Source: Candidatus Komeilibacteria bacterium
GTDB lineage: Bacteria > Patescibacteriota > Patescibacteriia > UBA1558
Assembly (NCBI GenBank): GCA_048538235.1
Contig: JBLYPX010000001.1
Span: forward strand, 72,013-136,012
Length of the DNA: 64,000 nucleotides
Direction: 5' to 3'
Part shown: piece by piece, positions 15,918 through 50,776 of the stretch
How the letters are laid out: each line of letters begins with the position of its first letter
How positions within the stretch are numbered: position 1 is the first letter of the stretch
Notes under the pieces: generated by a model
The model's database searches: none
What the model was told of the DNA's origin: nothing
The model's input: the letters and a program-made list of their open reading frames with translations, nothing else
Program-made: the position numbers and the translations under genes

Positions 15918-18347
15918 ATGAAAAAACAAAACCGTACTAAAAAGAATATCCTTTGGTTTAATGAAATAGGTAATAAGGATGTAGGATTAGTTGGTGGTAA
16001 AAATGCATCTTTAGGAGAGATGTATTCTAATTTAGTTAAAAAAGGAATAAATATTCCTAATGGTTTTGCTGTTACAGCAGCTGCTTACAGGTATATATTA
16101 AAAAACGCTAAGGCAGAAAAAAAAGTTAAAGATATTTTAAAGAATGTTAATACTAGAAATATTAAAGACTTAAGTAAAAAAGCTAGAGCGGTTAGAGAAT
16201 TAATACTTAGTATAGAATTCCCACAAGATTTACAAGAAGAAATATTTGAGGCATATGCTAAATTAAGTAAATTATACAAAGTAAATAATTTAGATGTAGC
16301 AGTTAGATCTTCAGCTACTGCTGAGGATTTACCATCTGCATCATTTGCTGGTCAACAAGAATCATATTTAAATATTAGAGGTAAACAAGAATTACTGGAC
16401 ACTGTTCGTAAGTGTATGGCTTCTTTGTTTACAGATAGAGCAATCTCTTACAGAGAAGATAAAGGTTTTGATCATTTTAAAATAGCTTTATCTGTTACTG
16501 TTCAGAAAATGGTAAGATCAGATAAAGCATCAGCTGGTGTTATGTTTTCCATAGATACAGAAACAGGTTTTCCTGGAGTGGTAGTTATTAATGCTGCTTG
16601 GGGTTTGGGAGAAATGGTAGTTAAAGGTTCAATTACACCAGATGAGTATTTTGTTTTTAAAGAAACTTTAGATAAAAAAAGTAAACAAGGTAAGATATAT
16701 AAACCAGTTATTGGTAAAGAAGTTGGTGCTAAAGAAAAAAGAATGGTTTACAGTAATACTGGTAAACCAACTAAGATTATTGCTAATACTGTTAAAGAAA
16801 AAAAACAGTATGTTTTACAAGATAAAGAAATACTACAATTAGCACGTTGGGCTAAGATGATAGAACAGTACTATAAAAGGCCAATGGATATGGAATGGGC
16901 TAAAGATGGTACAGATAATAAACTATACATAGTACAAGCTAGACCAGAAACTGTTGAATCACAAGAGAATAGGAATGTATTAACAGAATATATATTACAA
17001 GCTAGGAGTAAAGTACTTTTAACAGGTGCTGCAGTTGGCTCAAAAATAGGGCAAGGAATGGTTCAAATTGTTAAAGATGTAAAAGCTATAGATAAGTTTA
17101 AAGCAGGGCAAGTACTTGTTACTGAGATGACAGATCCAGACTGGGAACCAGTTATGAAAAAAGCAGCTGCTATTATTACTAACTCTGGTGGTAGAACTTG
17201 TCACGCTGCTATTGTTTCCAGAGAACTTGGTATTCCTTGTATTGTAGGCACAGGTAATGGAACAGATGTATTAAAGAATAGTCAAAAAGTAACAGTTTCT
17301 TGTGCAGAAGGTGAGAAAGGATATATTTACCAAGGATTGTTAAAGTACAAAGTTAAAAAAACTAATCTAAAAAAGGTTGGTAAACCAAAGACTAAGATAA
17401 TGATGAATGTTGGTGAACCAAGAGCTGCCTTTTTAGATTCTTTCATTCCCAATGATGGTGTTGGACTTGCTCGTGAAGAGTTTGTAATAAATAATTACAT
17501 TAAAGTTCATCCTTTAGCACTGCTTAACTTTAACAAGTTAGAAAGTAAAACAGCCAGGAATAAAATTGAAGAATTAACCTTTAACTATTCATCTAAGCCA
17601 CAGTTCTTTGTAGATAAATTAGCTGAAGGTATTGGTAGAATAGCATCTGCTTTTTATCCAAAGGATGTTATTGTTAGACTTTCAGATTTTAAATCTAATG
17701 AGTATGCTAATTTAATCGGTGGTAAACAATTTGAACCAGTAGAAGATAATCCAATGATTGGTTGGCGTGGTGCTAGTAGATATTATGATCCTAAATATTT
17801 ACCAGCTTTTAAATTAGAATGTAAAGCTCTTAAAAAAGTAAGAGAAGAATTTGGTTTAACCAATGTTAAAATAATGGTCCCATTCTGTAGAACTATTACT
17901 GAAGGTAAGAAGGTTTTAGAAATAATGGCTAAGGAAGGATTAAAACAAGGCGTTAATGGTTTAGAAGTATATGTTATGTGTGAAATACCATCTAATGTTA
18001 TTCTAGCTGAAGACTTTGCTAAACTATTTGATGGCTTTTCAATTGGTTCAAATGATTTAACACAATTAACATTAGGTGTAGATAGAGATTCAGAAATAGT
18101 TAGCCATGTTTATGATGAAAGAAATGAAGCTATTAAGAAACTATTAGAACAGGTTATTAAAACAGCACATAAGTATAAAACAAAGGTTGGTATCTGTGGT
18201 CAAGCACCTTCAGATTTTCCAGACTTTGCTCAAATGCTTGTTAAACTTGGTATAGATAGTATTTCTTTAATACCAGATACAGTTATTGGTACTACCTTGA
18301 AAGTATTACAAACAGAGAAGAAAATTAAAGAAATAATAGTTAAGTAA
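15918..18347 (+). CDS. ppsA: Phosphoenolpyruvate synthase (pyruvate, water dikinase)
   Basis: An 809-aa protein with the PEP-utilising mobile domain carrying the catalytic His (GGRTCHAAIVSRELGIPCIVG) and a C-terminal PEP/pyruvate-binding TIM barrel. Confidence 0.9.
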   Translation: MKKQNRTKKNILWFNEIGNKDVGLVGGKNASLGEMYSNLVKKGINIPNGFAVTAAAYRYILKNAKAEKKVKDILKNVNTRNIKDLSKKARAVRELILSIEFPQDLQEEIFEAYAKLSKLYKVNNLDVAVRSSATAEDLPSASFAGQQESYLNIRGKQELLDTVRKCMASLFTDRAISYREDKGFDHFKIALSVTVQKMVRSDKASAGVMFSIDTETGFPGVVVINAAWGLGEMVVKGSITPDEYFVFKETLDKKSKQGKIYKPVIGKEVGAKEKRMVYSNTGKPTKIIANTVKEKKQYVLQDKEILQLARWAKMIEQYYKRPMDMEWAKDGTDNKLYIVQARPETVESQENRNVLTEYILQARSKVLLTGAAVGSKIGQGMVQIVKDVKAIDKFKAGQVLVTEMTDPDWEPVMKKAAAIITNSGGRTCHAAIVSRELGIPCIVGTGNGTDVLKNSQKVTVSCAEGEKGYIYQGLLKYKVKKTNLKKVGKPKTKIMMNVGEPRAAFLDSFIPNDGVGLAREEFVINNYIKVHPLALLNFNKLESKTARNKIEELTFNYSSKPQFFVDKLAEGIGRIASAFYPKDVIVRLSDFKSNEYANLIGGKQFEPVEDNPMIGWRGASRYYDPKYLPAFKLECKALKKVREEFGLTNVKIMVPFCRTITEGKKVLEIMAKEGLKQGVNGLEVYVMCEIPSNVILAEDFAKLFDGFSIGSNDLTQLTLGVDRDSEIVSHVYDERNEAIKKLLEQVIKTAHKYKTKVGICGQAPSDFPDFAQMLVKLGIDSISLIPDTVIGTTLKVLQTEKKIKEIIVK

Positions 18348-18355
18348 ATAAAAAA

Positions 18356-18384
18356 GGCTCAACATTGTTGAGCCTTTTTTATTT
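18356..18384. terminator. Bidirectional rho-independent terminator between convergent ppsA and the T9SS-CTD gene
   Basis: AAAAAA-GGCTCAACA-TT-GTTGAGCC-TTTTTT: a perfect hairpin flanked by A- and T-runs. Confidence 0.7.
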
Positions 18385-18398: not shown

Positions 18399-19676
18399 CT
18401 ACTTAATGTAAGATAGCTTACGCGTAGCTTGGTAGTCAGGCGTTACCAACCGATACAAATAGATACCACTGGACAAGTTTTTTTGTCCAAGATCTATCAA
18501 TATCGAATGATTTCCGGCCGGTTGTTCATCGCTTACGATAGTCTTTATGGTCTCACCGGTCATGGAAAAGATTGTCAATTCCACAGGACCGTTTGAGGGA
18601 AGAAAATAACTGATCGTAGTAGATGGATTGAAAGGATTGGGATAATTCTGATTCAACCTGAATTCACTGGGCGATAATTGCCCCTCTTCATCTGTTGCCA
18701 GGGCGGAGTTCAGTTGAACAGCTGTTACCTCATATTCCAGGCTTGGATTAGGAATTATTATTGTAGCGTGTTCATTTGCTACAAATTGTTGTTCTGACCA
18801 CATGGTGCCATCTGGCAATATTGTTTTTACGCATACTGCATAGGCATCCGTCTCGATCGTCAGTTCATTCCCAGATAATGATGATACAGAAGGAACCACA
18901 AATGGGGGTTGAACCTCACTCATCAATTCACCAATCCCAAGTTCATAATTTGAAAACATTGGGTGATTGGGGTCGACGACGTATAGATTCACAAGGAATA
19001 GATCAACCAATCCAATGTTCGATACAAACAGAATTGAACCGCGGCCATAATTCAATCCTTCGTTGGTAAACCATTCACTCGATGGTTGGATTTGGCTGTA
19101 CGGGGTTAATAATTCAACGTCAGTCATGTCAACCATGCCATCACCTGATATATCACCCAGAATTCCATCTTGAGAGATAATGTGCTTGGTGTTGTGGATG
19201 TAAGTAGTTGCCAGGTCCGAGTTCAGAACAGTGAGTTGATTCTCTATTCTGAGTTCATGACCAACTGGTTGAAGGTTTTGGTAGTTCACAGTACCGATAG
19301 TATGCCAGGCAAGCCAATTTTGCGTCAGCACTATTTGGTAGCGCCAGAAGGGGTCATTTTCTGTGTAATAACTGGCGCCGGGAATTGCAGGATAACCATT
19401 CTCCTCAATATTCCAATTGTAGACTGGCATAGACAAAAGCTCACCTTGCCAGTATGCATAGGAATGGTATTCCAGTGCAACAATGTTTTGAACCCAGTTC
19501 ACCTGATTAACATGTATGTTGTACGAGAGTTGTTGCTGAGGTAGCATGTATAGCGTATCAACACCATTGACAGGATAGAATGCAAAAGTGTATTCTTCCT
19601 GATCATTGTTTTGTGAATATACACTTCCAAGGGCTATCAAGGTTAGCAATGTTGCAGTTAAAAACTTCACTTTCAT
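18399..19676 (-). CDS. Secreted protein with a dockerin-like Ca-binding motif and a C-terminal T9SS (Por) type-A sorting domain; compositionally foreign
   Basis: It has a signal peptide and the motif DISGDGMVDMTDVE. The last roughly 80 aa (NYPNPFNPSTTISYFLP...SGIYLYRLVTPDYQATRKLSYIK) match the Por_Secre_tail/T9SS C-terminal domain consensus closely. G+C of the gene is visibly much higher than the flanks. Confidence 0.7.
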   Translation of the reverse strand: MKVKFLTATLLTLIALGSVYSQNNDQEEYTFAFYPVNGVDTLYMLPQQQLSYNIHVNQVNWVQNIVALEYHSYAYWQGELLSMPVYNWNIEENGYPAIPGASYYTENDPFWRYQIVLTQNWLAWHTIGTVNYQNLQPVGHELRIENQLTVLNSDLATTYIHNTKHIISQDGILGDISGDGMVDMTDVELLTPYSQIQPSSEWFTNEGLNYGRGSILFVSNIGLVDLFLVNLYVVDPNHPMFSNYELGIGELMSEVQPPFVVPSVSSLSGNELTIETDAYAVCVKTILPDGTMWSEQQFVANEHATIIIPNPSLEYEVTAVQLNSALATDEEGQLSPSEFRLNQNYPNPFNPSTTISYFLPSNGPVELTIFSMTGETIKTIVSDEQPAGNHSILIDLGQKNLSSGIYLYRLVTPDYQATRKLSYIK

Positions 19677-19881
19677 TTTTGTTTCCTCTATACTGAAATT
19701 TACTTACAGCTACAATTTATCCCATGATAAATTGCATCAATATTTTCCTCCTTTCTTCGATCTCGCTGTTTTTAAGGTTCTGTTTATAATAAAGTAAAAT
19801 AGCATAAAGGTTTATTATTGTCAATATTTATAGAAAAACATTTGCTTTTTTAAGCTATTTTGTTATACTTTTCACACTTCT

Positions 19882-19969
19882 GGAGAGGTCGCATAGTGGT
19901 CTAGTGCGCCTGCTTGGAGTGCAGGTATACCGCAAGGTATCGCGGGTTCAAATCCCGCCCTCTCCGCCA
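19882..19969 (+). tRNA. tRNA-Ser (anticodon GGA)
   Basis: GGAGAGGTCGC...CCTGC-TTGGAGT-GCAGG, a long variable arm, then GGGTTCAAATCCCGCCCTCTCCGCCA. It has the class II long arm and an encoded CCA. Confidence 0.85.
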
Positions 19970-20076
19970 CATCGTGCTAGCACGAGGATATTAAAAAACA
20001 GCTTATTTATTAAGGTGTTTTTTATTGCAAAATAACCAAAATTAGGATAAGGTTTAGAGGTGTAAGACATATTTTT

Positions 20077-21156
20077 ATGAATTATTATAATTACATTTTT
20101 ACAATAGCAATTTTCGTTTTATATACCTTTATATTTTCTATTTTTATAATTCCACCCTTAAAGGATTTAAGGAGAATTAGAACCAAACTAAGAGGGTTAG
20201 TAAAGCCAAAGTCACTATTTAAGAGCGAGGATAGTAATAATAGGGAAAATCAAATTAAAGAAATAACGGATAGTTTGAAAGATTATAAATTAAGATATCA
20301 AGAAATAGAACAATCGACCTGGTTTCTTATTGCTGGGATAATCATAACTGTCTTAACAGCACTAGCTTTGTTTTTGTGGACCATCTCTAATCATCAGAAA
20401 ATTTTAAAGTATATCTTTGTTGATCATATAGATTATTTAATTTTAATGATTTATGTGATAATAATGTCTACTCTAATGGTTTGGGCATTTAAAATGAACA
20501 CCCCATCATCTAAGAAAATAACTAGGTGGGAATATTTAAGCAAAAACTATGGCTTGAGTCCATCGGGATTAGCAGAATGCGCCAATTTTCGTGCAGACTT
20601 TAATCCCAAAACGATATCAACGTTCGAAAGTGGTGACTCAAGAGGATTAAGACAGATTCAAATTTTTTCAGATATTGAATTAAGGGGTTATAAGTACTGG
20701 TTCTTCATATATAGTTTAGATGATCAGCGTCATATCTTCAATTTGACGGGGGCTGTTAACGATAAAACATCTTTGAAAGAACGGTTTTTTGATATAGAAG
20801 ACATACATGGTTGGTCTGTTAATATTGCAAGCTTTGATTTTGACAAATATAAAAATAAAGAATTATATTTATTTCTATTTATTTTCGACCCAATTCTTTA
20901 TGGTGATGTGGGAGCCCCTTATTGGGGCTATAAAAAATTTACCTACGAAGGAGAGGTAATATCTTCCAGCGAATATAATGTTCCCGCAAACAGTACACAT
21001 AAGAACATAAAATATTTTGGTAGTGGTTTAAAGTTTAAAAAATATACATGGCAAGACTCCGAGCAGTCCACTGAAGTTGATGAAATAGTTAAAAAAGTAT
21101 TTAATAATACATATATAGAGGTGACTAGTAGGCTGAAAAACGTTTCTATTAAATAA
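20077..21156 (+). CDS. Hypothetical membrane protein
   Basis: A 359-aa protein with an N-terminal TM helix and two more TM helices at about 75-135, plus a soluble C-terminal domain. No recognisable motifs. Confidence 0.45.
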   Translation: MNYYNYIFTIAIFVLYTFIFSIFIIPPLKDLRRIRTKLRGLVKPKSLFKSEDSNNRENQIKEITDSLKDYKLRYQEIEQSTWFLIAGIIITVLTALALFLWTISNHQKILKYIFVDHIDYLILMIYVIIMSTLMVWAFKMNTPSSKKITRWEYLSKNYGLSPSGLAECANFRADFNPKTISTFESGDSRGLRQIQIFSDIELRGYKYWFFIYSLDDQRHIFNLTGAVNDKTSLKERFFDIEDIHGWSVNIASFDFDKYKNKELYLFLFIFDPILYGDVGAPYWGYKKFTYEGEVISSSEYNVPANSTHKNIKYFGSGLKFKKYTWQDSEQSTEVDEIVKKVFNNTYIEVTSRLKNVSIK

Positions 21157-21220
21157 TTTTACACCTTTTCACACCATTATTAATATTGTTTACTAATAGG
21201 ATGTATTTTATACTATAGGT

Positions 21221-21652
21221 ATGGGATTTTATCAAAATACAAGATGCTCAAAATGTGGTTATAGTCTTTCTGGTGGCTACAACAGGGTTGGTGTTGATAG
21301 TAATTTAGGATTACCATTTTTAAAATGTCCAAATTGTAAAACTGTATGCAAGACGGGTAGGAATATTTATTCTTTAATGACAGATGAGGAGAGAGTAACC
21401 TATAAATTTGGTAGGATTAAACAAACGCTAATCAATGCATTTGGTATCGCGATTGGATTGATGGGTTTAAGCATAATAACTGGCGTCGTTGATGAGGATA
21501 AAATGGAACCATATCCCCACCTTGTAATTATCGGGGTTTTGGGTATTTTATTAAGTGCACTCATATCATATGCTAATGATAAGAGTTGTATTGATAACCT
21601 TGAAAAGGCGTATAGGAATAAGGACAAAAATTATTACGCCGATATAGATTAA
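21221..21652 (+). CDS. Zinc-ribbon membrane protein
   Basis: N-terminal C-x2-C...C-x2-C (CSKCGY...CPNCKTVC) followed by two TM helices. Confidence 0.45.
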   Translation: MGFYQNTRCSKCGYSLSGGYNRVGVDSNLGLPFLKCPNCKTVCKTGRNIYSLMTDEERVTYKFGRIKQTLINAFGIAIGLMGLSIITGVVDEDKMEPYPHLVIIGVLGILLSALISYANDKSCIDNLEKAYRNKDKNYYADID

Positions 21653-21683
21653 AAATATTTATGATCTAATCTGGTTTTAAAAA

Positions 21684-21710
21684 AACAACTTCATTTCGAA
21701 GCTGTTTTTT
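21684..21710 (+). terminator. Terminator-like hairpin
   Basis: AACAACTTC-ATTTC-GAAGCTGTT followed by T7. Confidence 0.4.
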
Positions 21711-21757
21711 TACTCTTTTATTCAGTTAATAGAGTTGCTACTGATTTTATATAAAAA

Positions 21758-21955
21758 TTATCTACCAAATTCCTTAAAGCATAATTCTGACTTAGTCCCG
21801 TACAAGCTATTGTCGTTGCCATATAATGACCACATAGAATCTAAACATGAATCCAGTTTATTCTCTCGTCTAACTTCTACTAAATAATATGATATACCGA
21901 CAATCATTCCCGCCAAAACTATACTAATTGAAATTGTTAAAATTTTCTTATTCAT
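21758..21955 (-). CDS. Small single-TM protein
   Basis: A 65-aa protein with an N-terminal hydrophobic helix. Confidence 0.3.
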   Translation of the reverse strand: MNKKILTISISIVLAGMIVGISYYLVEVRRENKLDSCLDSMWSLYGNDNSLYGTKSELCFKEFGR

Positions 21956-21972
21956 ATTTATATTAACATTAC

Positions 21973-22647
21973 TTAATAAATCCCGTTTGGAAATTCATTC
22001 TTAGAGTCCCATTCACCCCAAGAACCTAAATCTTTAAGTTCGCTACCGTTATTATGATCAATAATATAATAATTATCATAAGAGCCACCATCTGGATCGT
22101 CGTAATATTTATGTTTCAACGTTATGAGATTTCCTTTATATTCGCCATTTTTAACAATGTCTAGATAATTCCCGTCAGATATAAAATTAATTTTCCCCGA
22201 ATCAATGTTAACGGAAAATATAGCATTTGATGTGGTCCAAGATTGTGTTAGAAAGTATACATTTTTATCATCTAAAGAAAAAATGGGATTCATTATATTG
22301 ATAATCTCATGACCTTCATCATCTGCTTGTCCAGATTTAACTAATATAGTTTCCTGACCTGTTTCAATATTTCTCAACACAAGATCATTAAGTTTACCAC
22401 CCCAACCATCACCCGTTTGATAATTTGAGTCTACGGATCCATAATCACGTAATGCCAGTTCCAATACACCATCTTTAGAAGTCGTTTTATAGTCATCAAC
22501 TATTTTCTTCTCACTACTATCCAAAATGTTTTCGTCCACCACCTCAGTATCAATATCATTTTGATTTTTATCTACAAGAAAAAACATTGTCGCTATAATA
22601 ATAACGCCCACAACAAGTAAAGCTTTTTTGTATTCTTTATAACTCAT
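21973..22647 (-). CDS. Hypothetical membrane-anchored protein
   Basis: A 224-aa protein with an N-terminal TM anchor and a D/G/Y-rich extracytoplasmic domain. Confidence 0.45.
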   Translation of the reverse strand: MSYKEYKKALLVVGVIIIATMFFLVDKNQNDIDTEVVDENILDSSEKKIVDDYKTTSKDGVLELALRDYGSVDSNYQTGDGWGGKLNDLVLRNIETGQETILVKSGQADDEGHEIINIMNPIFSLDDKNVYFLTQSWTTSNAIFSVNIDSGKINFISDGNYLDIVKNGEYKGNLITLKHKYYDDPDGGSYDNYYIIDHNNGSELKDLGSWGEWDSKNEFPNGIY

Positions 22648-23041
22648 TTATTATATCCGTGAGTTGATTAGGGTTCTTAACTAAGTCTATATTAATCAAT
22701 TTGTTTTCACAATTACGTTCTTTCAACGCAGCGTGTTCCAATCTATATACATCATCATCTAACCACCTAAAATCTTTTGAAAAATCTATGCCCTCTGTCT
22801 TCCAAGTGCCCCAAGTAGTTGGTTTTATTAGTCTTGCGTATTCCATTGCTTCGACTGAAATCCTATCTCTCAAATATTCTAATAAATGCTCTGTATCACC
22901 CTTGCAATGAGTAGTTAGCCAATAAACATCATGGTTGTTTGTAATATACTTTAGAAATTCAACCAGCCCATCAGCTGGTTGTTGATACTTATCTAAGGCA
23001 TCATGAATCAAAACGCCGTCTATGTCTAAGTAAATGTTCAT
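22637..23041 (-). CDS. HAD-superfamily-like small hydrolase
   Basis: HAD motif I DIDGVL at residues 6-11. At 134 aa it resembles the small HAD-like proteins common in phage and defence islands. Confidence 0.45.
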   Translation of the reverse strand: MNIYLDIDGVLIHDALDKYQQPADGLVEFLKYITNNHDVYWLTTHCKGDTEHLLEYLRDRISVEAMEYARLIKPTTWGTWKTEGIDFSKDFRWLDDDVYRLEHAALKERNCENKLINIDLVKNPNQLTDIINEL

Positions 23042-23050
23042 TTTATAATT

Positions 23051-23338
23051 TTATTTTTTGCCTTGTCTTTTTTTTGCTCTTTCTGTGTGATTAATATCTT
23101 CGACTAGGGCAATCTTTGCTCTTTTCATTAGTTCTTTAATTGCTCTTGGAATATCATCCATATAATTAAATACCTCCGAATCTGATGAAATCTTCTTTGT
23201 TTTATTAGCCTCAATAATAGCAACCCCACTAGACCAGCAAGGGGTTTGTTTGTGATCTTTGCCAACACGTCCAGGTAGCTCATTTGTCCAGAACCTGAGT
23301 TTAATGGCGAGTGTTTTGTTATCCTCTTTTTTTGTCAT
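23051..23338 (-). CDS. Hypothetical basic protein
   Basis: A 95-aa protein that immediately precedes the methyltransferase gene on the same strand. Confidence 0.35.
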   Translation of the reverse strand: MTKKEDNKTLAIKLRFWTNELPGRVGKDHKQTPCWSSGVAIIEANKTKKISSDSEVFNYMDDIPRAIKELMKRAKIALVEDINHTERAKKRQGKK

Positions 23339-23356
23339 AAATAAAATTGTTAATAA

Positions 23357-26300
23357 TTATAGTGAACTTGCTTTGTTTATTCTATTCCAAACTAAACGAC
23401 AAACAACACGATACACCTCCTTACGCTCCTCACTAGACAGATTTAACGAGTCAAATATAATACTATCCAACTTAGCCCTGTCAGATAATGGTTTTGGGTT
23501 TTGTTTTTCTATTGAGATGTCTAATTTCGGATCAATACCACATTCGTCAAAAATAGATTTTATGTCTCTATTTTTAAATAAAGTTAGAGTGTCATTCAGT
23601 TCCTTTTGTCTATCTTTTAGATCGGGAAGTAATAAATTTTTTACCTCATAAACTTTCACATCAACAGGCCCGCCTCCACCACCGTATCCGCGTGCCATTA
23701 ATTCTAATTGGAGTAACGTAATTGTAGAATTACACAACGCGCCTACATAATTATCGCAATACATATCATACATTCTAGCATCAGCTAAAAATCCTGTATT
23801 AGCAACAACAAAGAATCTTTCCCTATACGTCATTGTCCATAGGAAGTTACTAGGAATGTGTTCGCCCAGATCCCACCACCTTTTTCTCCCCTTTATGGTT
23901 GGTATGTTCTGAAATCCAATAATAACCTTGCCCTTGTTGGCACCCTGTTTTATTGTAATTTTTTCTTTTTCGCCCCACTCGATATATTTCAACGCATTAC
24001 TCCCACACAGCTCATCTTTATTTTTATTGCAAACAAAAAGCCTATATTTCAGATCATTTGGCCTAATTAATATACTCTTGCATTCACGTGGGCTTTTTAC
24101 AACAGGTATTAAGAACTCATCTTCTATATTTAATTTTTTAGCTTCCTCTTCTGTTAAGTAAAAAAAATCATTTGCTCCAGTTTTAATTCCAAATTTTATA
24201 TCGGCCATACCACCAAGTTTTACAAGCTTATTCTCTCCCTTATTTAAAATAGTGAAAAAGATATCAGGTGCTCGTAAATATTTACCACCCCATTTATCAC
24301 CAATGTATTTACCACCCAATTTTTTTTGTTCATCATTTTCATATTCAATTCCTGGCTCTCTTAAATTCTCTGCCGTAATAGGATATATTCTATAAGAATC
24401 ATTTGAAACAATTTTTTTTGTTTTTTCGATATGTAAAAGATTTTCGGTAAAAATAGTTTCTTCGAAAGGTTTTTTAAATACCACAAATTTAGTTAAACGA
24501 TCTTCTTCAACTTTCTTCTGTGGCGCATTGATGACAGAAATAACAGTATTAACATCTGCTTCTTTAAAGCTTCGCCTGTTGTTATTATCTATAATAAACT
24601 CTATAGGGCAACGTTTTAATAAAAAATCCTGTAACCATGAACCATAAGCTACGTCGAGCCAGGAACTAGAACATATATAAGTATGTATGCCATTGGGATT
24701 TAACAACCTTAAACCACGTATATAAAAATAAGTATAAAGGTCTGATTGGGCGTTAATTTTTGTCTTATTAGAAAAATCGTTTGGGAAATCCAACCTAACC
24801 ATCTCTTGAAGAAAATTTTTATAATCCTTTTGATTTTTAACATTTCCTGTTGGATCACTTATTGATTCTTGTCTAACATATGGTGGATTACCGATTACAA
24901 TATCAAAACCCTCTTTTTCAACAAATATTTCAGCAAATTCAATATTCCAAACTAATGGTTTATTGTCTTTCAATGAAGATTTTTGACTTTCCAACTCTTT
25001 AATATCATCTTCTAAACATTTGATTTTTTCTTTGTCTATAGAGTTTTTTTTGATAATTTTATCATCTTTTTCTTCACGGCTAAATGAAAAAGGTTGCTGG
25101 CTAGATTCTTTAATATTTTTCTCATTTTTTATTTCTTCTGATAAAATTTTTATTTCATCATCTAAAATATCGCGATAAATTTGTAATTCACTTTGTTCTA
25201 TTTTCCATTTCTTTAAAGCTTCTTTTTTATTATAAAAATAGTCTATTTTTAAATTTTTTAACTCTGTAACCTGCCTTTTAATTTTTTGAGATACAAAAGC
25301 ATGCCCTGTTACAGGAAATGTTTTATTGCCAACTCTTTGTACTAAAGAATCGCCAGGACGTATCTTGAAATCTAAACTTGGTAAAATAGGTTCTATTGAG
25401 TTTTTCATCTCATCAGGCGCATCAATAAAAAGAGTGATCCACAATCTTAGTTGAGTAATCCAAACAGCCCACTCTTTTACTTCAACACCATAAAGCGACT
25501 TTCCTATAATTCTTTTTTTTCGTTCAAATGTGTTAAATTTATCTTCTCCTAGTTTATTATATATATGCTCTTCAATTTCATTGATGACTTGCAACATTCC
25601 CACAGGAAAAGCTCCTGATCCTACCGCAGGATCACAAATTGTTATTTTTTCTAAACAATCTAATATATTTTCATATTGTTCTTTAGAGAATGAGCCATAT
25701 TTTTGTTGGTCTGCATATTCTTCGCTTGTACCGCCCTCAATAAAAAATAACTCATACAAATCACGAATGTCTATATTGCTGGTATTGTTTTTGTGGAGCC
25801 ATTTTACGAGTGATATGCGACACATCAAATCAACTTCAGTTTTTGGAGTATATATAGCACCATCTTCTTTATTAACCAAACGCTCAAATATAATACCTAA
25901 AAATTCAGGATTTAATTCTAATTCTTCATCATAGCGGGTATTTTCTTCTATAGTAAAATTATAAGAAAATAAAAAATCAAAGAAGTCAATTATATTTTTG
26001 TCTGGAATGAATAAATCTTCTTTATCTATATCCTTCTCACGAAACAACCCACCATTTAAATAAGGAGCTGCTTCTAATGCAGCTTTCGTGTCGGCGGGGA
26101 CAAAACTATCTTCTCCGTCAATTTTTTTTCCAGGTGCAGAGTTGAGCGTTTGAAAAAAGAGTGGTTTTAACCAATGAGAATAAAATGTATCATTTTCATT
26201 TGATACATCTAAATATTCTTTCAAATAATTCTGTAAGAATTTTATATTGCCAGCAAGCCAGCCACGTTTTTGAATAAAACCGAGAAAAATTATGCGAATA

Positions 26301-26920
26301 ATAAATAGAAGAGTAAAATCATCCTTCTTCTCTGTCGAGGCTTTATGTGATCCCTCAATTGATTTAGATATTTCCTTAAATCTTGGATAAAAGTCTTGAT
26401 AGAAATCTCTAGTTACTTTAGATAGAGAAAATGCTTCTTTTATATCTTCAATATTATTGAAACTATTATTTCCTATTTGTTGCAAGAACGTTTTATTATT
26501 AAAATCCTCACTAACGAAATATGTGTATCTTTTAAAATTATTCCAAACCCTTTTAGCGCCAGAATATTGAGGATAGATTAAAGAAAATCGGAAGTTGCCA
26601 GCGCTGTCATAGAAAATAAAAATCCCTGCTTCATATTTATCTTCTTGTTTTAATAGTGATTTTGCAAAATCATATTGCGCTTTTTTGTTTAATCTCTCAG
26701 TGACATCTTTATTACTTTGTACCCCTATTACGCAAACATCTTTTAACCTGCCACCAAAATCTATATAACCAATCCTCTTAGTTGATTTAAAAAAATCTTT
26801 ATCATACTTTTCTAAATTTTCATCTAAGTCTTTGTATCTCGTTGATTTTTCACGAAAGAAAACATCAAATTTTTCTAGTGAAAAATCTGTAATAATATTT
26901 TTTAAAATTTCTTTTGACAT
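23357..26920 (-). CDS. Large gamma-class N6-adenine DNA methyltransferase (PglX / Eco57I / Type IIG-like), 1187 aa
   Basis: AdoMet motif I DPAVGSGAFPVG upstream of motif IV IVIGNPPYVRQE (NPPY), a long N-terminal region and a C-terminal Eco57I-like target-recognition region. The start lies 4 nt downstream of the stop of the PLD-SNF2 gene, consistent with an operon. Confidence 0.8.
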   Translation of the reverse strand: MSKEILKNIITDFSLEKFDVFFREKSTRYKDLDENLEKYDKDFFKSTKRIGYIDFGGRLKDVCVIGVQSNKDVTERLNKKAQYDFAKSLLKQEDKYEAGIFIFYDSAGNFRFSLIYPQYSGAKRVWNNFKRYTYFVSEDFNNKTFLQQIGNNSFNNIEDIKEAFSLSKVTRDFYQDFYPRFKEISKSIEGSHKASTEKKDDFTLLFIIRIIFLGFIQKRGWLAGNIKFLQNYLKEYLDVSNENDTFYSHWLKPLFFQTLNSAPGKKIDGEDSFVPADTKAALEAAPYLNGGLFREKDIDKEDLFIPDKNIIDFFDFLFSYNFTIEENTRYDEELELNPEFLGIIFERLVNKEDGAIYTPKTEVDLMCRISLVKWLHKNNTSNIDIRDLYELFFIEGGTSEEYADQQKYGSFSKEQYENILDCLEKITICDPAVGSGAFPVGMLQVINEIEEHIYNKLGEDKFNTFERKKRIIGKSLYGVEVKEWAVWITQLRLWITLFIDAPDEMKNSIEPILPSLDFKIRPGDSLVQRVGNKTFPVTGHAFVSQKIKRQVTELKNLKIDYFYNKKEALKKWKIEQSELQIYRDILDDEIKILSEEIKNEKNIKESSQQPFSFSREEKDDKIIKKNSIDKEKIKCLEDDIKELESQKSSLKDNKPLVWNIEFAEIFVEKEGFDIVIGNPPYVRQESISDPTGNVKNQKDYKNFLQEMVRLDFPNDFSNKTKINAQSDLYTYFYIRGLRLLNPNGIHTYICSSSWLDVAYGSWLQDFLLKRCPIEFIIDNNNRRSFKEADVNTVISVINAPQKKVEEDRLTKFVVFKKPFEETIFTENLLHIEKTKKIVSNDSYRIYPITAENLREPGIEYENDEQKKLGGKYIGDKWGGKYLRAPDIFFTILNKGENKLVKLGGMADIKFGIKTGANDFFYLTEEEAKKLNIEDEFLIPVVKSPRECKSILIRPNDLKYRLFVCNKNKDELCGSNALKYIEWGEKEKITIKQGANKGKVIIGFQNIPTIKGRKRWWDLGEHIPSNFLWTMTYRERFFVVANTGFLADARMYDMYCDNYVGALCNSTITLLQLELMARGYGGGGGPVDVKVYEVKNLLLPDLKDRQKELNDTLTLFKNRDIKSIFDECGIDPKLDISIEKQNPKPLSDRAKLDSIIFDSLNLSSEERKEVYRVVCRLVWNRINKASSL

Positions 26921-26924
26921 AATT

Positions 26925-29900
26925 TTATTTTATATTTTCTATAGCTACAATAACTTCTTTCTGTGGGGCACCTTTTTGTTTAATATCTTCTAAATAATTA
27001 TCCTTGCCAAGCTCCATCTTCATTTGATCTAATGATTTCTTAGTGCGCTCAATATCTGCTTCTTCTTTCGCATCTAATTTTAAATCAATAATCTTACGAA
27101 GTGTGGATTTGGGAAGTGTTTGATAATCTGTGACATCTTGTAAAAGATTGGATAAGAGCCTAGAATAACGACTAAAAATTTTATTTGGATTACTGTCAAA
27201 ACCCTGAAGAACCGTTAATGCTTTACGTTCAATGCTGTTTTCCCCAGATGGAATTCTTGATTTATCATCATAATCTCTTATTTCTACATATTGATCCCAG
27301 AAATTATCCGACAGTTTTAAACTTTTTTCTGAAAAATCACATTTAATCATTTCGAGAACATTTTCAAAATTTATATATTCTATAACTTCCTTCTTGTCAT
27401 TATTATAACTGCGCGAATATAGATTGCCCGCTTTTTTAATAAAAACCAACAAATTATTATCTTTATACTTTTTAGCCGTTTTCACTCTTGATGGAGCCTC
27501 TTCAATTTTAATAGATACTTCTGGATATTCTTTCTTGATTTCATTGAGCATTTTTCTGGTCTTAGTATGAAAACTTTCTTTTTCCATATCGTCGGGATTA
27601 GCTTTCAATTTTTTAAATAGACCAGCTGGTGATGGCTGTTCATCAACATCAAATATTTTAGAATCTTCTCCTAAGGCATTGTGAATCAAAAACATTTTTT
27701 GTTGTGCAATTTCTCTACTGCGCACCTGCGTTGCACCTTTTTCAGTAGGAAAAAAATTAAAAATAAACAATTCATTAAAAACTTTTTTCCCGATCCTATT
27801 AATACGTCCGACTCTTTGTATGACTCTGGTTGGATTCCAGGGTATGTCATAATTCAGAACCGTACCAGCGCGGTTCAAATTAAAACCTTCAGATATTTTA
27901 TCGGTAGCTAACAATACATCATATTTATTATTCTTCTTCTTATAGCTAGCATCAAAATCTTTTAGTATTTCTTCCTTTTTTGAGGTTGATAAACCATTGG
28001 CGATAGACAATAGTCTGCCAGGAAATCTGGCTTCTAATTTATCCTCTAGGTATTTAGCAGTATCTACGTACTCGGTAAAAATAACAACTTTTCGCGTGGG
28101 TTGGTTGATAGCAGTTTTTTTTACTTGTTTTTTAATAGTTTTAACCAAAGCTTCAAATTTAGGATCGTGGCTGGATAGGTTAAGTTCGGTTAATTCTTTT
28201 TTTATTTTTGCAAAAAGCTTTTTATCACTTTCTATGTCTTTTAAAAACTTATCTTTATGTTTAAAATCGTTTATATTGTATATTTTATAATTTTTTGGAT
28301 AATTACCCTCACCCAAACGTTCTTCATATTTAGATAATTCATTATCAATGTCATCCAAATCCAGATTATAAATATCTTCCATTAATTTTCTATCTAAAAT
28401 AAATTGTCCTTTAGAATTTTTAACAAATTCTGAAACTTTTTCATGAACTCTTAAAAAATTATTTATGCTTTGTTCAAAAGCACCAAAAGAGCTTTCAAAC
28501 CTTTTTACTAATAGACGACGCATGAAATCGAACAAATTCTTCTGAGAAAAATATTCAAAGTTGTCTTTTTCTCCCTTGATGCTTTCTGATTCGCTTATAC
28601 CTGATTCATATGAAAATGGTTGATAAATAGCTCCCTTAAATTCGCGTCCGTCATCGCCAAAATAATTTGTAACAATTTTTTCATAAAAATCTAATTGATT
28701 TTTGTTTAGCTCAAAAAATATTTCTTCTGGATCTCTTGTGTCTGATAAATTGTAAACTTCTTTACTATACACAGGATCATTTTTCAAATCTAAACGATTT
28801 CTGCGAATCATTATTGGTTCAATAATACTACGTATTTCACCGGCTAATCTATTGCTTCTTTCCTGAACTTTGCCTAAATCAATTTTTTTACTATCAAAAA
28901 TATTTTGATAGTCTCTAGTCGCTTTATCTTTTTTTCTTTTAGTGGGAGAATTGTAGTTCTTGCTAATGTTTGACAGTTTTTTATACAATTCATTATAAGA
29001 TCTGAATTTATCTTTTAAATTATTATCTAATGTAATTGTTGATTTGCCAGGGACTATAAACAATTGCAAAAGCGAGAAAATATCAGCTGGAGAATTATTG
29101 AAAGGAGTCGCTGTTAATAAAATAACCTTTTTATTTCTACATATATTCTTTAACAATTCGTAGGCTCTAGTGTCTTCATTGCGAAACCTATGTACCTCGT
29201 CAATTATCACAACCTCTATATCTGGGTTATTATGAACAAAATTTAGAGCCTTTTCTAAAGTTTCAACGCCACAAGACATGACACGCCAATCATTAATATC
29301 AAAATTTGATTGATATTCTTTCCATCCAGAATCATCATCTCCGACTAGCCCTGGAGGACTAATTATAATTCCTCTACGGTTTAAAATTCTACCCAGAGCT
29401 CCAGCAATAACACTTTTACCAAGACCAACAACATCAGAAACCATTACACCTCCATGATCATCAATAATACCTAAAGCCTGAATAATAGCGTCTATTTGAT
29501 AGTCGTATGGTTTGTATCCGGCGCTTGTTAAAATATTACTCACTTTTTGTCGAGTGGTTTTAGATGAATAACGATCCAAATAATTTCTAAGAACTAGGGC
29601 AAAAGCTTCAAAAGGGGTGAACTCGGCTGCCATTGTTTTGTTTTCAACCAAGTCTAATAATCTTGTTTTAAATTCTTCAACTTCAGTAATCCTATCAGCA
29701 GTTTCCCACAAATCTTTAAAATATTTTTTTGCCTCATCAACTCCAGAATCCGAAATTTCAACATTAAACTCATGCTGGCCAGCTAATCCAGCACTTGTTA
29801 AATTACTACTACCTGTGATAAAAATATCTCTACTACCAATACCAGCTTGTTCGTTCAATCTAAATAAATACAATTTAGCATGATTGGGCTCTCTAGTTTT

Positions 29901-30278
29901 TCTAATTCTTATTTTATTTTCCTTGATTAATTTTAAGAAGAAATTTACTTGTTCGTAGAAATTTGCATTGTCTAAATCTTGATCCGTTAAACTTTTGTGT
30001 ATAGAGTTTAAAAATCGATCAAAAGATTCCTCTCTTGATAATCCCTTGTCTTTATCACCATATTCTACTAATCCATATACCTGCCTATCAACATTTAACC
30101 CCACAAGTATATCTATCTGACTTTTCGGATTTTTTTTAATAGACTCGTATAATTCTTTAATGCCTGAAAAATAAAAAAATCCTACCAAAAAACGCATCTC
30201 TTCACTGTGCTCAATTAGACGGCTAATTCTTTTTTTAAGGTTTTGTTCCTTATCATTAGTAATGAATTTTGATGACAT
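26925..30278 (-). CDS. PLD-family nuclease domain fused to an SNF2-family (SF2) helicase, 1117 aa
   Basis: The N-terminal HKD-type motif NHAKLYLF...GSSNLT indicates a phospholipase-D-like nuclease. SF2 motifs follow: I VVGLGKSVIAG, II VIIDEVHRF (DExH), III LLTATP, and VI QRVGRINRIG in the helicase-C domain. Confidence 0.8.
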   Translation of the reverse strand: MSSKFITNDKEQNLKKRISRLIEHSEEMRFLVGFFYFSGIKELYESIKKNPKSQIDILVGLNVDRQVYGLVEYGDKDKGLSREESFDRFLNSIHKSLTDQDLDNANFYEQVNFFLKLIKENKIRIRKTREPNHAKLYLFRLNEQAGIGSRDIFITGSSNLTSAGLAGQHEFNVEISDSGVDEAKKYFKDLWETADRITEVEEFKTRLLDLVENKTMAAEFTPFEAFALVLRNYLDRYSSKTTRQKVSNILTSAGYKPYDYQIDAIIQALGIIDDHGGVMVSDVVGLGKSVIAGALGRILNRRGIIISPPGLVGDDDSGWKEYQSNFDINDWRVMSCGVETLEKALNFVHNNPDIEVVIIDEVHRFRNEDTRAYELLKNICRNKKVILLTATPFNNSPADIFSLLQLFIVPGKSTITLDNNLKDKFRSYNELYKKLSNISKNYNSPTKRKKDKATRDYQNIFDSKKIDLGKVQERSNRLAGEIRSIIEPIMIRRNRLDLKNDPVYSKEVYNLSDTRDPEEIFFELNKNQLDFYEKIVTNYFGDDGREFKGAIYQPFSYESGISESESIKGEKDNFEYFSQKNLFDFMRRLLVKRFESSFGAFEQSINNFLRVHEKVSEFVKNSKGQFILDRKLMEDIYNLDLDDIDNELSKYEERLGEGNYPKNYKIYNINDFKHKDKFLKDIESDKKLFAKIKKELTELNLSSHDPKFEALVKTIKKQVKKTAINQPTRKVVIFTEYVDTAKYLEDKLEARFPGRLLSIANGLSTSKKEEILKDFDASYKKKNNKYDVLLATDKISEGFNLNRAGTVLNYDIPWNPTRVIQRVGRINRIGKKVFNELFIFNFFPTEKGATQVRSREIAQQKMFLIHNALGEDSKIFDVDEQPSPAGLFKKLKANPDDMEKESFHTKTRKMLNEIKKEYPEVSIKIEEAPSRVKTAKKYKDNNLLVFIKKAGNLYSRSYNNDKKEVIEYINFENVLEMIKCDFSEKSLKLSDNFWDQYVEIRDYDDKSRIPSGENSIERKALTVLQGFDSNPNKIFSRYSRLLSNLLQDVTDYQTLPKSTLRKIIDLKLDAKEEADIERTKKSLDQMKMELGKDNYLEDIKQKGAPQKEVIVAIENIK

Positions 30279-30407
30279 AGTGTTAAAATTAACTTAAAAT
30301 CCCTTTAATTATCCCTTTTTTTAGCCAAAAAGTCAAAGGAATCGGTCAAATAAGATAATACTTATTCACAACACAAAACACAATCATTAAAAACCCCTTT
30401 AGTTGCA

Positions 30408-31535
30408 GTGTCTTGTTCATATGATATATTTTCCTTTATAATTATAGGCGTTAGATATAAAAACATTCTATTAATTAAACAAAAAAATATGGACAATAGT
30501 ATAGAGCTAAAAAAACCATGGTATAAGAAATGGTGGGGAGTGCTGTTAATTATAATTGCCGTTATATATATTCCACCTTTAATAAATTCTAAGAATATGT
30601 CAGATAGTACAAATACCGATAGTCAAAATATTCTAGAAATGAATAAGGTGGGAAACGATATACAAATTGATGGATTTTCAAGGTTTACTTCTAAAGACTG
30701 GGGGTTTTCTGTTCTTTTTCCAGAGGAACCAAAAGAAAACACTTTAGATTTACCAGAAATGACAATTCATAATTTCCAGGCACATAAATTAATTAGTGAA
30801 AATGAACCAATCCAATATAATATTTTTTACAGTGATATTAAAAATGGAAAAATTATGGACAGCGATTCTATCTCTGCTTATTTAAGCAACTACGCTTCTG
30901 GTAAAGCTTCTGCAAGTAACGGCAAGTTAATAAGTAAAAAAGACATAAACTTCCAAGAATTCCCAGCAAACGAATATTCATATATGGATACGGTACTGAA
31001 TATAGAAATGGTGCATAAAGGGGTAATCTTAATTGTTGACGGAGATGCTGTTGAATTGTCGGTTGTATACCCTAGTACACTTAATTCAGACACTGCGAAG
31101 TATGAAGATTTTAAACAATCGTTTGAACTTGAGGCAATTCAGAAGCCGCTATCTTCTGAATATTGGTCTAATGGCATTTTGAAATTTAAACCTCCTGTTA
31201 ATTGGGAAAAAAAAGATTCATCACAAGAAAATAGGATATTAACATATGTAAATGAAGCCGGTCATTCCATTGAATTATATGAATCAAAATTTAATAATCA
31301 AAAAATTTCCTGTAATGATTTACAAAAAGAAGTGGGCGATAAAAACATAGATGATAAAGGTTATATGTATAGAACCTTTCCTAATCCTGACTATAATATT
31401 GATATGGGAATGGTTTTCAAGTGTATTGAAAACAACAATCAAAGTTTTATTCTATCAGGAAAGGCACCAGTAAATACTTTTTTCAGATCTCAACAAATTT
31501 TTCAAGACCTATTGGATTCATTCACTTTTCAATAA
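30408..31535 (+). CDS. Hypothetical membrane-anchored secreted protein
   Basis: The likely true start is the internal Met at about 30489 (MDNSIELKKPWYKKWWGVLLIIIAVIY, a single TM helix). It has a roughly 320-aa extracytoplasmic domain. Confidence 0.45.
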   Translation: MSCSYDIFSFIIIGVRYKNILLIKQKNMDNSIELKKPWYKKWWGVLLIIIAVIYIPPLINSKNMSDSTNTDSQNILEMNKVGNDIQIDGFSRFTSKDWGFSVLFPEEPKENTLDLPEMTIHNFQAHKLISENEPIQYNIFYSDIKNGKIMDSDSISAYLSNYASGKASASNGKLISKKDINFQEFPANEYSYMDTVLNIEMVHKGVILIVDGDAVELSVVYPSTLNSDTAKYEDFKQSFELEAIQKPLSSEYWSNGILKFKPPVNWEKKDSSQENRILTYVNEAGHSIELYESKFNNQKISCNDLQKEVGDKNIDDKGYMYRTFPNPDYNIDMGMVFKCIENNNQSFILSGKAPVNTFFRSQQIFQDLLDSFTFQ

Positions 31536-31547
31536 GAAGTCAATCAT

Positions 31548-32876
31548 TTATTCAACGTATACTTTTTTATTTTTAATGCTAATTAAGCTTTTAAAAGATG
31601 ATATTATTTGCCTCTGTTCTTCAATATTTCCATTAGCTATTAAGAACTTAACGTATTTCTTAACATCAACGTCAGAAATAGTTATATTTGTTTTCTGACC
31701 TAATAAATAACTATTAAACTTTTTATACCTTATAACTTCATCACTTATCTGTTTCTTAATAGCTAAGTTGTTTATATTAACATTATCAATTAGATTGGTC
31801 AGCTGTTTGATTAAATCTGTTTCACTTATATAACCGCACTTACAGTTTTTATCTCTAGATTTTGTGCAACCGTAATAAACATGGCGGGTATAACCACCAT
31901 TCTTTAGTTTCTTAAATTTCTCAGTTGCAGATATACCAGAACCGCACAAACCGCACTTCATTATTTTAGTAAATGCAAATTCTATATTTTCTCTTCTAAC
32001 CAAATCGGATTTTTTAATTTGTTCTTGAACTTGATCGTATAGTTCCTTGCTAACTATTGGTTCGTGTTTTCCTTTGTACCAATTACCCGATCCCCGAGGA
32101 TATTCAAATGAACCATAATAAAATGGAGTACTTAAAGCTCTATATATATTACCAAGACTGAAATGTTTCTTACCCGCTACTGTTCTAAAATTTAGATCAA
32201 ATTTCAGCCAGTGATATAGTTTTCTGCCTGACCATTTTTCATAAGCTACTTTTTCAAACATTTGTTTAATAATTGGTGCACGATCAGGATCTAGTAAACA
32301 TTCTCCTTTATGATCCATACGCTTATCTTTAAAATATCCAGTTGGAGGACAGGTTGGCCATAAACCCATTTCACATCTAGTTCTAAGTCCTCGTTTCACA
32401 TTAATACCTCTATTATCATTTTCTAGTTTAGCTTGAGAACAAAGTATCATTAATAAGAACTTTTCATTTGGTGAATTGCTAAAGGTTTGTCCGTAAGTTC
32501 TAATGCCTAACAATTTTTTAGCATCCATTAGATCAACCAACGATCCAAGATCGCCGGCATTTCTTGAAAGTCTATCTGGTGCCCATGTAAGAATAGCATT
32601 GAATCTATTTTCTGCTATGTCTTGCAATAGCTCCTTAAATATAGGACGTTTATCTGAATCTTTAGCTGACTTCGCCTCTCTTTTTATGTTAATGATTTCT
32701 AAATTTTCACGCTCTGCTATTTGTAGCATTTCTTTAACTTGTGATTCTATTGATAGGGCTTGTCTCTCGTCTGATTCAGTACTTTTTCTAGCATACAAGC
32801 AATACCTTAATTTAACGTCTGGAGCTATTCCAAACTTGGTTTGTTGTGACATATTCATGCCTCCATGATGACACAT
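31548..32876 (-). CDS. Large serine recombinase (resolvase/integrase family)
   Basis: N-terminal catalytic domain motif YARKSTESDERQALSIESQ (the R-x-S-T...Q pattern of serine recombinases). It is followed by a recombinase domain and a C-terminal zinc ribbon (CGLCGS...YYGC). The true start is probably one of the Met residues at positions 7 to 9. Confidence 0.8.
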   Translation of the reverse strand: MCHHGGMNMSQQTKFGIAPDVKLRYCLYARKSTESDERQALSIESQVKEMLQIAERENLEIINIKREAKSAKDSDKRPIFKELLQDIAENRFNAILTWAPDRLSRNAGDLGSLVDLMDAKKLLGIRTYGQTFSNSPNEKFLLMILCSQAKLENDNRGINVKRGLRTRCEMGLWPTCPPTGYFKDKRMDHKGECLLDPDRAPIIKQMFEKVAYEKWSGRKLYHWLKFDLNFRTVAGKKHFSLGNIYRALSTPFYYGSFEYPRGSGNWYKGKHEPIVSKELYDQVQEQIKKSDLVRRENIEFAFTKIMKCGLCGSGISATEKFKKLKNGGYTRHVYYGCTKSRDKNCKCGYISETDLIKQLTNLIDNVNINNLAIKKQISDEVIRYKKFNSYLLGQKTNITISDVDVKKYVKFLIANGNIEEQRQIISSFKSLISIKNKKVYVE

Positions 32877-33047
32877 TTTTTAGACCTTGCTAAGAACTTA
32901 ACTGTCGATAACGTGTTGGCAACTAACCTTAACAAAAGCCTAGATTAGCTATATGATTTATGGACTTATATAGATAAAATCTGTATAATTTAGTTAACAA
33001 TTAGATTGACCTAACCCTCGTAATCTCTATGAGGTATGGTCATAAAT

Positions 33048-33093
33048 CCTCAACTATAGAAATGGTCTTCCGACCAGTATTTCGTAGTTGAGG
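33048..33093. promoter_or_regulatory. 46-bp imperfect dyad (CCTCAACTA ... TAGTTGAGG, with an inner GAAATGGTC/GACCAGTATTTC symmetry) next to the recombinase gene; candidate recombination (att) site
   Basis: The outer arms are perfect 9-bp inverted repeats. The inner arms are near-symmetric around a central TTCC. The size and partial symmetry are typical of large-serine-recombinase att sites. A second GC-rich hairpin (TGATAGC-ACCGCAAGGG-GCTATCA) follows at 33115-33138. Confidence 0.35.
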
Positions 33094-33199
33094 TCTACAT
33101 TCGAAAGGGTGTAGTGATAGCACCGCAAGGGGCTATCAGCTGGTTCGGGGGACCTTTTTTATTTCCTGTGCTAGCCGTAAGATTATTAATTATAAATAT

Positions 33200-50774: not shown

Positions 50775-50776
50775 TT

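Follow-up and report, generated by a model that had tools for sequence, protein, structure and literature searches.

C-terminal domains (CTDs) of type IX secretion systems (T9SS) routinely serve as a marker of T9SS cargo and, by extension, of an origin in the Fibrobacteres–Chlorobi–Bacteroidetes (FCB) group. The system has been described as anchored in the outer membrane and unique to the FCB superphylum (PMC12421860, PMC9170169, PMC12398890). Type-A CTD cargo of Bacteroidota, exemplified by RgpB of Porphyromonas gingivalis and the Flavobacterium johnsoniae CTDs 8glj and 8glk, combines a Sec signal peptide and a glutamine at position +1 of the mature chain (Gln+1) with a C-terminal CTD of about 80 residues that adopts a beta-sandwich fold. 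Carrying a glutamine at this position in about 71% of the substrates of signal peptidase I has been reported as a trait specific to Bacteroidetes (PMC5837995). The nearest described architecture to the one reported here is a scaffoldin-like protein of Candidatus Stygibacter (Cloacimonadota), in which cohesin- and dockerin-type modules occur together with a CTD of T9SS type, its suggested task being to keep the protein at the cell surface, with dockerin-bearing enzymes alongside (PMC8542988). Here we describe a gene, referred to as the CTD gene, within a window of 64,000 nucleotides (the whole stretch of DNA analysed, from contig JBLYPX010000001.1 of a Candidatus Komeilibacteria bacterium). Its product, P0001, resembles these proteins in its signal peptide, Gln+1, CTD motifs and fold. 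Its host belongs to the Candidate Phyla Radiation (CPR, Patescibacteria), which has been placed within a monoderm clade (10.1101/2021.05.31.446380).

Our preferred reading joins four elements, and we hold them jointly with moderate confidence: the gene is real and expressed and belongs to a protein family resident in CPR; its product would be a surface protein exported through Sec; its CTD would act independently of a T9SS; and this copy would be a recent replacement from a CPR relative of higher G+C content. Part of this is already known, as the NCBI annotation of the protein reads "T9SS type A sorting domain-containing protein" and the domains it contains are of known kinds. New with respect to the searchable literature, in which nothing relevant on a T9SS or its CTD in CPR/Patescibacteria was found, is a family, so far CPR-only, that combines a strongly conserved T9SS-type CTD and Gln+1 in hosts expected to lack the T9SS.

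The preliminary description of the window recognized a T9SS/Por CTD over the last approximately 80 residues, and this assignment holds at both curated cut-offs. Residues 345–421 of P0001 score 39.3 bits against TIGR04183 (cut-off 23) and 31.6 bits against PF18962 (cut-off 27). The domain reaches the last residue of the chain (425 of 425), and the strands of the AlphaFold2 model, located between residues 352 and 423 with a predicted local distance difference test score (pLDDT) of about 90–96, form a beta-sandwich. A profile of the family introduced below also matches solved CTDs, including 8glj_D (E = 1e-5), 8glk_D and RgpB. The same fold is found in the FlgD immunoglobulin (Ig)-like domain (PF13860), which matches over the CTD in 26 of 60 family members; P0001 differs from it in scoring 16 bits against a threshold of 27 and in lacking a flagellar context. 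The whole-protein model, computed on the 60-sequence alignment, has a pLDDT of 90.3.

At the other end of the chain, the residues MKVKFLTATLLTLIALGSVYS followed by QNN combine a positively charged n-region, a hydrophobic helix over residues 2–17 and small residues at positions −1 and −3, and fit a Sec signal peptide. The predicted signal peptidase I site lies between VYS and QNN, leaving a glutamine at the N-terminus of the mature protein.

Between these two elements, the model divides the passenger region (residues 24–335) into a beta-sandwich, a helical module and a second, small beta-sandwich. A Foldseek search with the whole model returned generic multi-Ig matches only, and we used instead a sub-model of residues 24–256 (pLDDT 92.3, predicted TM-score 0.85). 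Against the PDB, this sub-model placed cohesins on top (5nrm_A, 2vo8, 6kgf_A, 2vn5_C, 1g1k_A, 4fl4_L, 8ajy_A and 2zf9_A), with E values of 1e-6 to 1e-4, target TM-scores of 0.5–0.58 and about 9% identity. The first domain may be described as cohesin-like by fold only.

The helical module carries the motif GDISGDGMVDMTD (residues 174–193), which is of the DxDGxVD type and had been pointed out as dockerin-like. The motif is present, and the family profile matches the first dockerin repeat in solved structures (E = 9e-7 to 1e-4; best 4fl4_A, E = 9e-7), although the single sequence, at 13.6 bits, stays below the Pfam threshold of 22.9 for Dockerin_1 (PF00404). Of the two repeats of about 22 residues each that PF00404 comprises, both built of an EF-hand-like calcium loop and a helix, the second is not recognizable in P0001. 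Dockerin_1 is found at E < 1e-3 in three of the 60 family members.

These features set P0001 apart from its described counterparts. The Ca. Stygibacter protein comprises 3,755 residues with tandem cohesins and carbohydrate-binding modules and comes from an organism of the FCB group, whereas P0001 has one cohesin-like and one dockerin-like module in a single chain of 425 residues, with neither enzymes nor a carbohydrate-binding module, and comes from a CPR bacterium. It resembles the non-cellulosomal modules of Peer et al. (2009, FEMS Microbiol Lett 291:1), as cited in PMC8542988, in pairing a cohesin-like fold with a dockerin EF-hand repeat in a non-cellulolytic organism; P0001 differs in that only one of two dockerin repeats is recognizable and the cohesin is assigned by fold only. 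Compared with Bacteroidota cargo, P0001 has a host with a monoderm placement, no T9SS gene within the 64-kb window and a passenger family whose named members are exclusively CPR. Secretion, cleavage by PorU and attachment to anionic lipopolysaccharide cannot operate for P0001 as described in Bacteroidota.

Taken together with the domain order, the preferred reading suggests the following route. The signal peptide would direct P0001 to the Sec translocon of a single-membrane CPR cell, where signal peptidase I would cleave between VYS and Q. The mature protein may remain at the cell surface or act on it, in a structural or adhesive capacity, with the cohesin-like and dockerin-like modules making calcium-dependent protein–protein contacts. 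The CTD would then be a conserved Ig-like domain for interaction or retention, rather than a signal for an outer-membrane T9SS translocon. On this basis P0001 is a concrete candidate surface or adhesion protein, bearing cohesin-like and dockerin-like modules, for CPR episymbionts.

To place the passenger region, we built a profile of residues 160–335, which excludes the CTD, and searched it exhaustively with HMMER against 1.84 billion cluster representatives. A word-index search with the passenger region gave three matches only, and the exhaustive search was required to reveal the family: 98 cluster representatives at E ≤ 1e-10, mostly of 400–600 residues and with the same layout as P0001. Counted as clusters, the family numbers roughly 80. 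In a local re-scan, 100 sequences, some of them near-identical cluster members, cover at least 110 profile positions, and 84 of the 100 end in a CTD. Por_Secre_tail is found in 56 and CHU_C in nine of the 60 aligned members. Homologues of the passenger region occur within this family only.

All eight members that carry an organism name are assigned to CPR/Patescibacteria (Komeilibacteria, Kuenenbacteria, Falkowbacteria, Parcubacteria GW2011_GWB1_42_6 and four "Patescibacteria group" entries), and the family is, as far as its members are named, known so far only from these lineages. Three long contigs carrying family members likewise show CPR-like contexts: one of 610 kb with giant T4SS_pilin proteins, ClpP, SecD/SecF, prepilin peptidase and FtsA/FtsZ; one of 274 kb with ribosomal and tRNA-modification genes; and one of 127 kb with gyrA, FtsH and ValRS. 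At eight other family loci, the G+C content of the gene lies within about 4 points of that of its host, with hosts spanning 34% to 46% G+C. From these contexts and the host-matched composition we conclude that the family is resident in CPR, and that the premise of the preliminary description, that such a CTD marks a Bacteroidota/FCB origin, fails for this family. The result is also a warning that, in CPR bins, a CTD should not be taken as grounds for diagnosing contamination or horizontal transfer. Phage carriage is unsupported, since no family member was found on the viral contigs searched.

The composition of the CTD gene is indeed foreign to the window, as had been claimed. Its G+C content is 41.9% compared with 32.4% for the window, the highest among all 1278-bp windows (z = 3.9), and G+C at third codon positions (GC3) reaches 41.8%, while 44 other open reading frames (ORFs) average 22.7% (sd 5.6) and the adjacent ppsA has 15.3%. 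At four-fold degenerate sites (GC4), the gene has 39% G+C and the window 12% (chi-square 114, p = 1e-24), and its codon-usage likelihood is the lowest among 45 ORFs. As G+C at first and second codon positions is close to normal, the shift is synonymous. The step in G+C falls at both ends of the ORF.

The nearest homologue of P0001, P0002, is 48% identical over its full length and is encoded on an independent ENA contig, L001, from another sample and a MEGAHIT-style assembly. A neighbour-joining tree groups P0001 and P0002 as sisters. On L001, the P0002 gene is convergent with ppsA, and tRNA-Ser(GGA) comes next, oriented relative to them as in the window; the intergenic spacers are homologous on both sides of the CTD gene. 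On one side, the terminator hairpin GGCTCAACAATGTTGAG is kept; on the other, the block TTGACAATAATAAA..TTTATGCTA is kept as well and coincides with the predicted −35 and extended −10 elements of the promoter. A consensus scan of this putative promoter gave agreement at 10 of 12 positions. The leader between promoter and gene (positions 19677–19795, about 115 nt from the predicted −10 to the start codon) contains a block TGGGATAAATTGTAGCTGTAAGTAA, which reads TGGGGCGAATTGCAGCTGGAAATAA in L001. A search of Rfam over 18.3–20.1 kb gave nothing above threshold except the tRNA, and the leader block has no Rfam match.

To define the surroundings of the gene, we compared relatives whose ppsA is 76–80% identical to that of the window (Komeilibacteria where named). 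A scan for ppsA in GTDB representative genomes, which do not include the window genome, gave a best match of only 69% and no close relative, and the JGI metagenomes yielded one useful relative, L089. The backbone in these relatives consists of UvrA, a hypothetical gene, Wzy_C, pyruvate kinase and ppsA on one side, and of tRNA-Ser(GGA), PRTase and ClpB, all on the minus strand, and a methyltransferase on the other. What lies between the two sides differs from relative to relative: MscL with two small ORFs in L171 (1.8 kb from ppsA to PRTase), MscL and ProRS in L089, HisRS-like genes in L170, a dCache protein in L169 and an ISL3 transposase in L172. In the window, a variable stretch of 25.9 kb (18.35–44.2 kb) follows ppsA, with the CTD gene at its edge. 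The gene is present downstream of ppsA in the window and L001 only, and absent in L089, L169, L170, L171 and L172; atypical composition thus coincides with absence at the same site in relatives, the pattern expected of a recent transfer. tRNA-Ser(GGA) shares its strand with ppsA both in the window and in L001 and lies on the opposite strand in L089 (5373–5462), L170 (15680–15767) and L171 (10683–10772), which points to an inversion. The compared loci show that the region downstream of ppsA, by tRNA-Ser(GGA), behaves as a hotspot of gene turnover in Komeilibacteria.

Two further observations were made on ppsA and its surroundings in these relatives. In L172 (191–3847; JGI Ga0180007_10014074), the ppsA product comprises 1218 residues with an intein that contains a LAGLIDADG domain, and the ISL3 transposase comes after this gene. 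In L171, a surface-type protein of 737 residues (4445–6658) with faint Dockerin_1 and weak CARDB matches and no CTD is encoded directly upstream of ppsA.

The G+C content of the two copies differs sharply relative to their hosts. The CTD gene of L001 is host-like, with a GC4 of 22% in both gene and flanks, while the window copy reaches the 39% noted above against 12% for its genome. The synonymous divergence (dS) of ppsA between the window and L001 is saturated (>1.2), and a gene resident since that split should have equilibrated, from which we infer replacement or re-acquisition. The present copy retains the codon usage of a genome of about 40% G+C, and was probably replaced or re-acquired recently from a higher-GC CPR relative with the same locus architecture.

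The best-surviving alternative, which we nevertheless regard as unlikely, is vertical inheritance of the gene at this locus, going back to the ancestor shared with L001, with selection keeping its GC3 high, for example through codon optimization of a very highly expressed surface protein. The sister relationship of P0001 and P0002, the orthologous locus and the conserved, consensus-like promoter are all compatible with vertical descent, and the gene is enriched in codons ending in C for Tyr, Asn, Asp and Phe. G-ending codons are doubled as well, however, and four-fold G+C rises from 12% to 39%, which has the look of another mutational background more than of selection matched to tRNAs. The bias is also missing from homologues in other AT-rich hosts, both in L001 and in L086, where the gene has a GC3 of 26.5%. 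The joint rise of G- and C-ending codons and the unbiased homologues argue against codon selection driven by translation or expression.

A second composition outlier in the window, unrelated to the CTD gene, bears on the same alternative. It is an ORF of 178 residues on the plus strand (47722–48258; G+C 46%, GC3 50%) without a family match, the first 42 residues of which are similar to a 207-residue ORF of L169. Relative to L171, where ClpB and the methyltransferase are separated by a spacer of 115 bp, the ORF has been inserted between these two genes. This insertion indicates that the window genome has taken up other GC-richer DNA, against a purely vertical explanation.

The CTD is the most conserved domain of the family and is no decaying relic. 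Between P0001 and P0002, nonsynonymous divergence (dN) is 0.155 in the CTD and 0.49–0.58 in the three passenger domains, and mean pairwise identity over the 60 members is 39% in the CTD versus 18% in the cohesin-like domain. Invariant alignment columns cluster in the motif PNPFNP.TTI. The earlier suggestion that the gene is non-functional is contradicted by this conservation and by the conserved, consensus-like promoter. In hosts presumed to have neither outer membrane nor T9SS, such conservation suggests that the CTD has a role independent of the T9SS translocon.

Gln+1 is retained along with the CTD. A signal peptide ending in [ASG]-Q was found in 38 of 51 family members, compared with seven of 32 other signal-peptide-like ORFs from the same CPR loci (Fisher p = 4e-6), by a crude test that used a regular expression and no trained predictor. 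These observations raise a second alternative, in which the CTD, perhaps with Gln+1, continues to serve as a signal, recognized either by some CPR route that has nothing to do with the T9SS or through mimicry directed at the T9SS attachment machinery (PorV/PorU) of an FCB host. If this were true, CPR bacteria, presumed to have no outer membrane and no T9SS, would be maintaining a family of secreted proteins with both hallmarks of Bacteroidota T9SS cargo. The idea draws on the CTD being the most constrained domain and lying at the extreme C-terminus in 84 of the 100 re-scanned sequences, and on the excess of [ASG]-Q sites. Set against it, no candidate processing partner adjoining the gene is conserved in six contexts, CTDs are confined to the one family in the window and in 1.6 Mb of fetched loci, with no diverse cargo, and the C-terminal position may be mere inheritance. 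We therefore rate it slightly below vertical inheritance, as a doubtful explanation.

The data behind that judgement are as follows. No gene neighbour is conserved across six different family contexts. A six-frame scan of the window with a CTD hidden Markov model built in this analysis gave no second CTD, and in the fetched loci, 1.6 Mb in all, the only ORFs found with a CTD were members of the family itself. The family thus shows no sign of a dedicated partner or of diverse CTD cargo. As first noted, the window itself contains no T9SS components: PorK/L/M/N, SprA/Sov, PorV and PorU were not found by Pfam among its 45 ORFs of at least 120 residues, and the machinery expected to accompany a functional T9SS cargo is absent from these 64 kb.

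Several points weigh against our preferred reading. The inspection for T9SS genes covers only 64 kb of a genome of about 860 kb, and a CTD constantly at the extreme C-terminus together with a retained Gln+1 would also fit a real sorting function. The cell-surface location, the calcium binding and the binding partner are predictions, and the fold similarity of the first domain to cohesins is moderate. As for the proposed replacement, no donor lineage was found, the nearest homologue being only 48% identical, and the exchange would require recombination within very short conserved flanks.

Recent direct transfer from Bacteroidota or another FCB lineage, which would leave the gene without function in secretion for want of a T9SS, appears highly improbable. 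It would account for the foreign composition, for a CTD indistinguishable from FCB type-A CTDs (45–54% identity to proteins of Ignavibacteria, Balneolales and Marinimicrobia) and for the Gln+1 habit of the signal peptide that is typical of Bacteroidetes (PMC5837995). It is at odds with a passenger region whose homologues are confined to a CPR-resident family (all eight named members), with the orthologue at the same locus in the relative L001, with the strong purifying selection on the CTD, the strongest within the protein, and with the lack of family members on viral contigs. Of the recent horizontal acquisition originally considered, the recent arrival remains plausible, given foreign composition in accessory DNA; the Bacteroidota/FCB source does not stand. 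As judged from the compared loci, the CTD gene is neither an assembly chimera nor a direct import from Bacteroidota.

The preliminary description had also raised an assembly or binning chimera, in which a GC-rich segment was falsely joined to a CPR contig; despite the abrupt G+C step at either end of the ORF, we give this practically no credence, since that step delimits a complete ORF with its own promoter and a shared terminator, both flanks match the same backbone as in other Komeilibacteria, and the nearest homologue lies at the same locus in the relative L001, where the order ppsA, CTD gene, tRNA-Ser(GGA) and the spacer blocks recur in an independent assembly, so that a chimera would require two false joins within spacers homologous to those of another assembly, and the sequence comparison refutes it.

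The features of the locus and its surroundings are listed in Table 1. The position of the CTD gene between a strong bidirectional terminator and a tRNA was correctly described at the outset. tRNA-Ser(GGA) lies 205 bp upstream of the CTD-gene start codon and is divergent from the gene.

Table 1. Features of the CTD gene, its product and the surrounding window (positions in the window unless residues are given).
Feature	Position	Strand	Basis or remarks
CTD gene	18399..19676	-	ORF, 425 aa, predicted secreted protein (P0001)
Signal peptide, Sec-type, aa 1–23	19608..19676	-	Read from sequence; helix 2–17 in AlphaFold2 model
Cohesin-like beta-sandwich	aa 24–170		AlphaFold2 and Foldseek
Dockerin-like helical module, one EF-hand repeat	aa 171–256		Model and family profile
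Small beta-sandwich	aa 257–325		AlphaFold2 model
Linker, disordered from 326 to 335	aa 326–340		AlphaFold2 model
T9SS type-A CTD, aa 341–425	18399..18653	-	TIGR04183, PF18962; motifs NYPNPFNPSTTISY, SGIYLYRL, and KLSYIK at C-terminus
Bidirectional intrinsic terminator, common to ppsA and CTD gene	18346..18384	.	Perfect 19-nt inverted repeat, A/T runs
Promoter-like site of CTD gene	19796..19824	-	TTGACA, 17 nt, TG-n-TATTTT
tRNA-Ser(GGA)	19882..19969	+	ARAGORN; Rfam tRNA 57.4 bits
ppsA, phosphoenolpyruvate synthase	15918..18347	+	Backbone gene, left border of variable region; 85% identical to L001 copy
Remainder of lineage-specific variable region	19970..44228 (~24 kb)	.	Pfam; between tRNA-Ser and backbone PRTase/ClpB
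Eco57I-like restriction–modification methylase	23357–26920		Pfam
SNF2/PLD helicase	26925–30278		Pfam
Large serine recombinase	31548–32876		Pfam
DNA methylase	36210–37487		Pfam
PrgI-family protein	50777–51262		
TraG/VirB4-like P-loop ATPase	51942–53801		
T4SS_pilin protein	56069–57235		

Besides the genes listed, the variable region encodes hypothetical membrane proteins, a DEAD helicase and an HTH_Tnp protein. An assignment of 23357–30278 to rpoB/rpoC was ruled out by Pfam, which identifies the Eco57I-like methylase and the SNF2/PLD helicase there. A large serine recombinase (33% identical) sits directly at the 3′ end of tRNA-Ser(GGA) in L001; the serine recombinases are located past that end of the tRNA, on the side away from the CTD gene. 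Neither att-like direct repeats around the CTD gene nor another copy of the tRNA 3′ end was found. That the CTD gene itself integrated at the tRNA was rejected, given the lack of att-like repeats and the position of the gene on the 5′ side of the tRNA.

Further along the window, positions 49668–57235 contain a cluster similar to a type IV secretion or conjugation system, to which the last three entries of Table 1 belong, plus several ORFs without a family. Finally, two tRNA-Ser genes with TGA and GCT anticodons are arranged head to tail on the minus strand at 60163–60346, with 1 bp between them.

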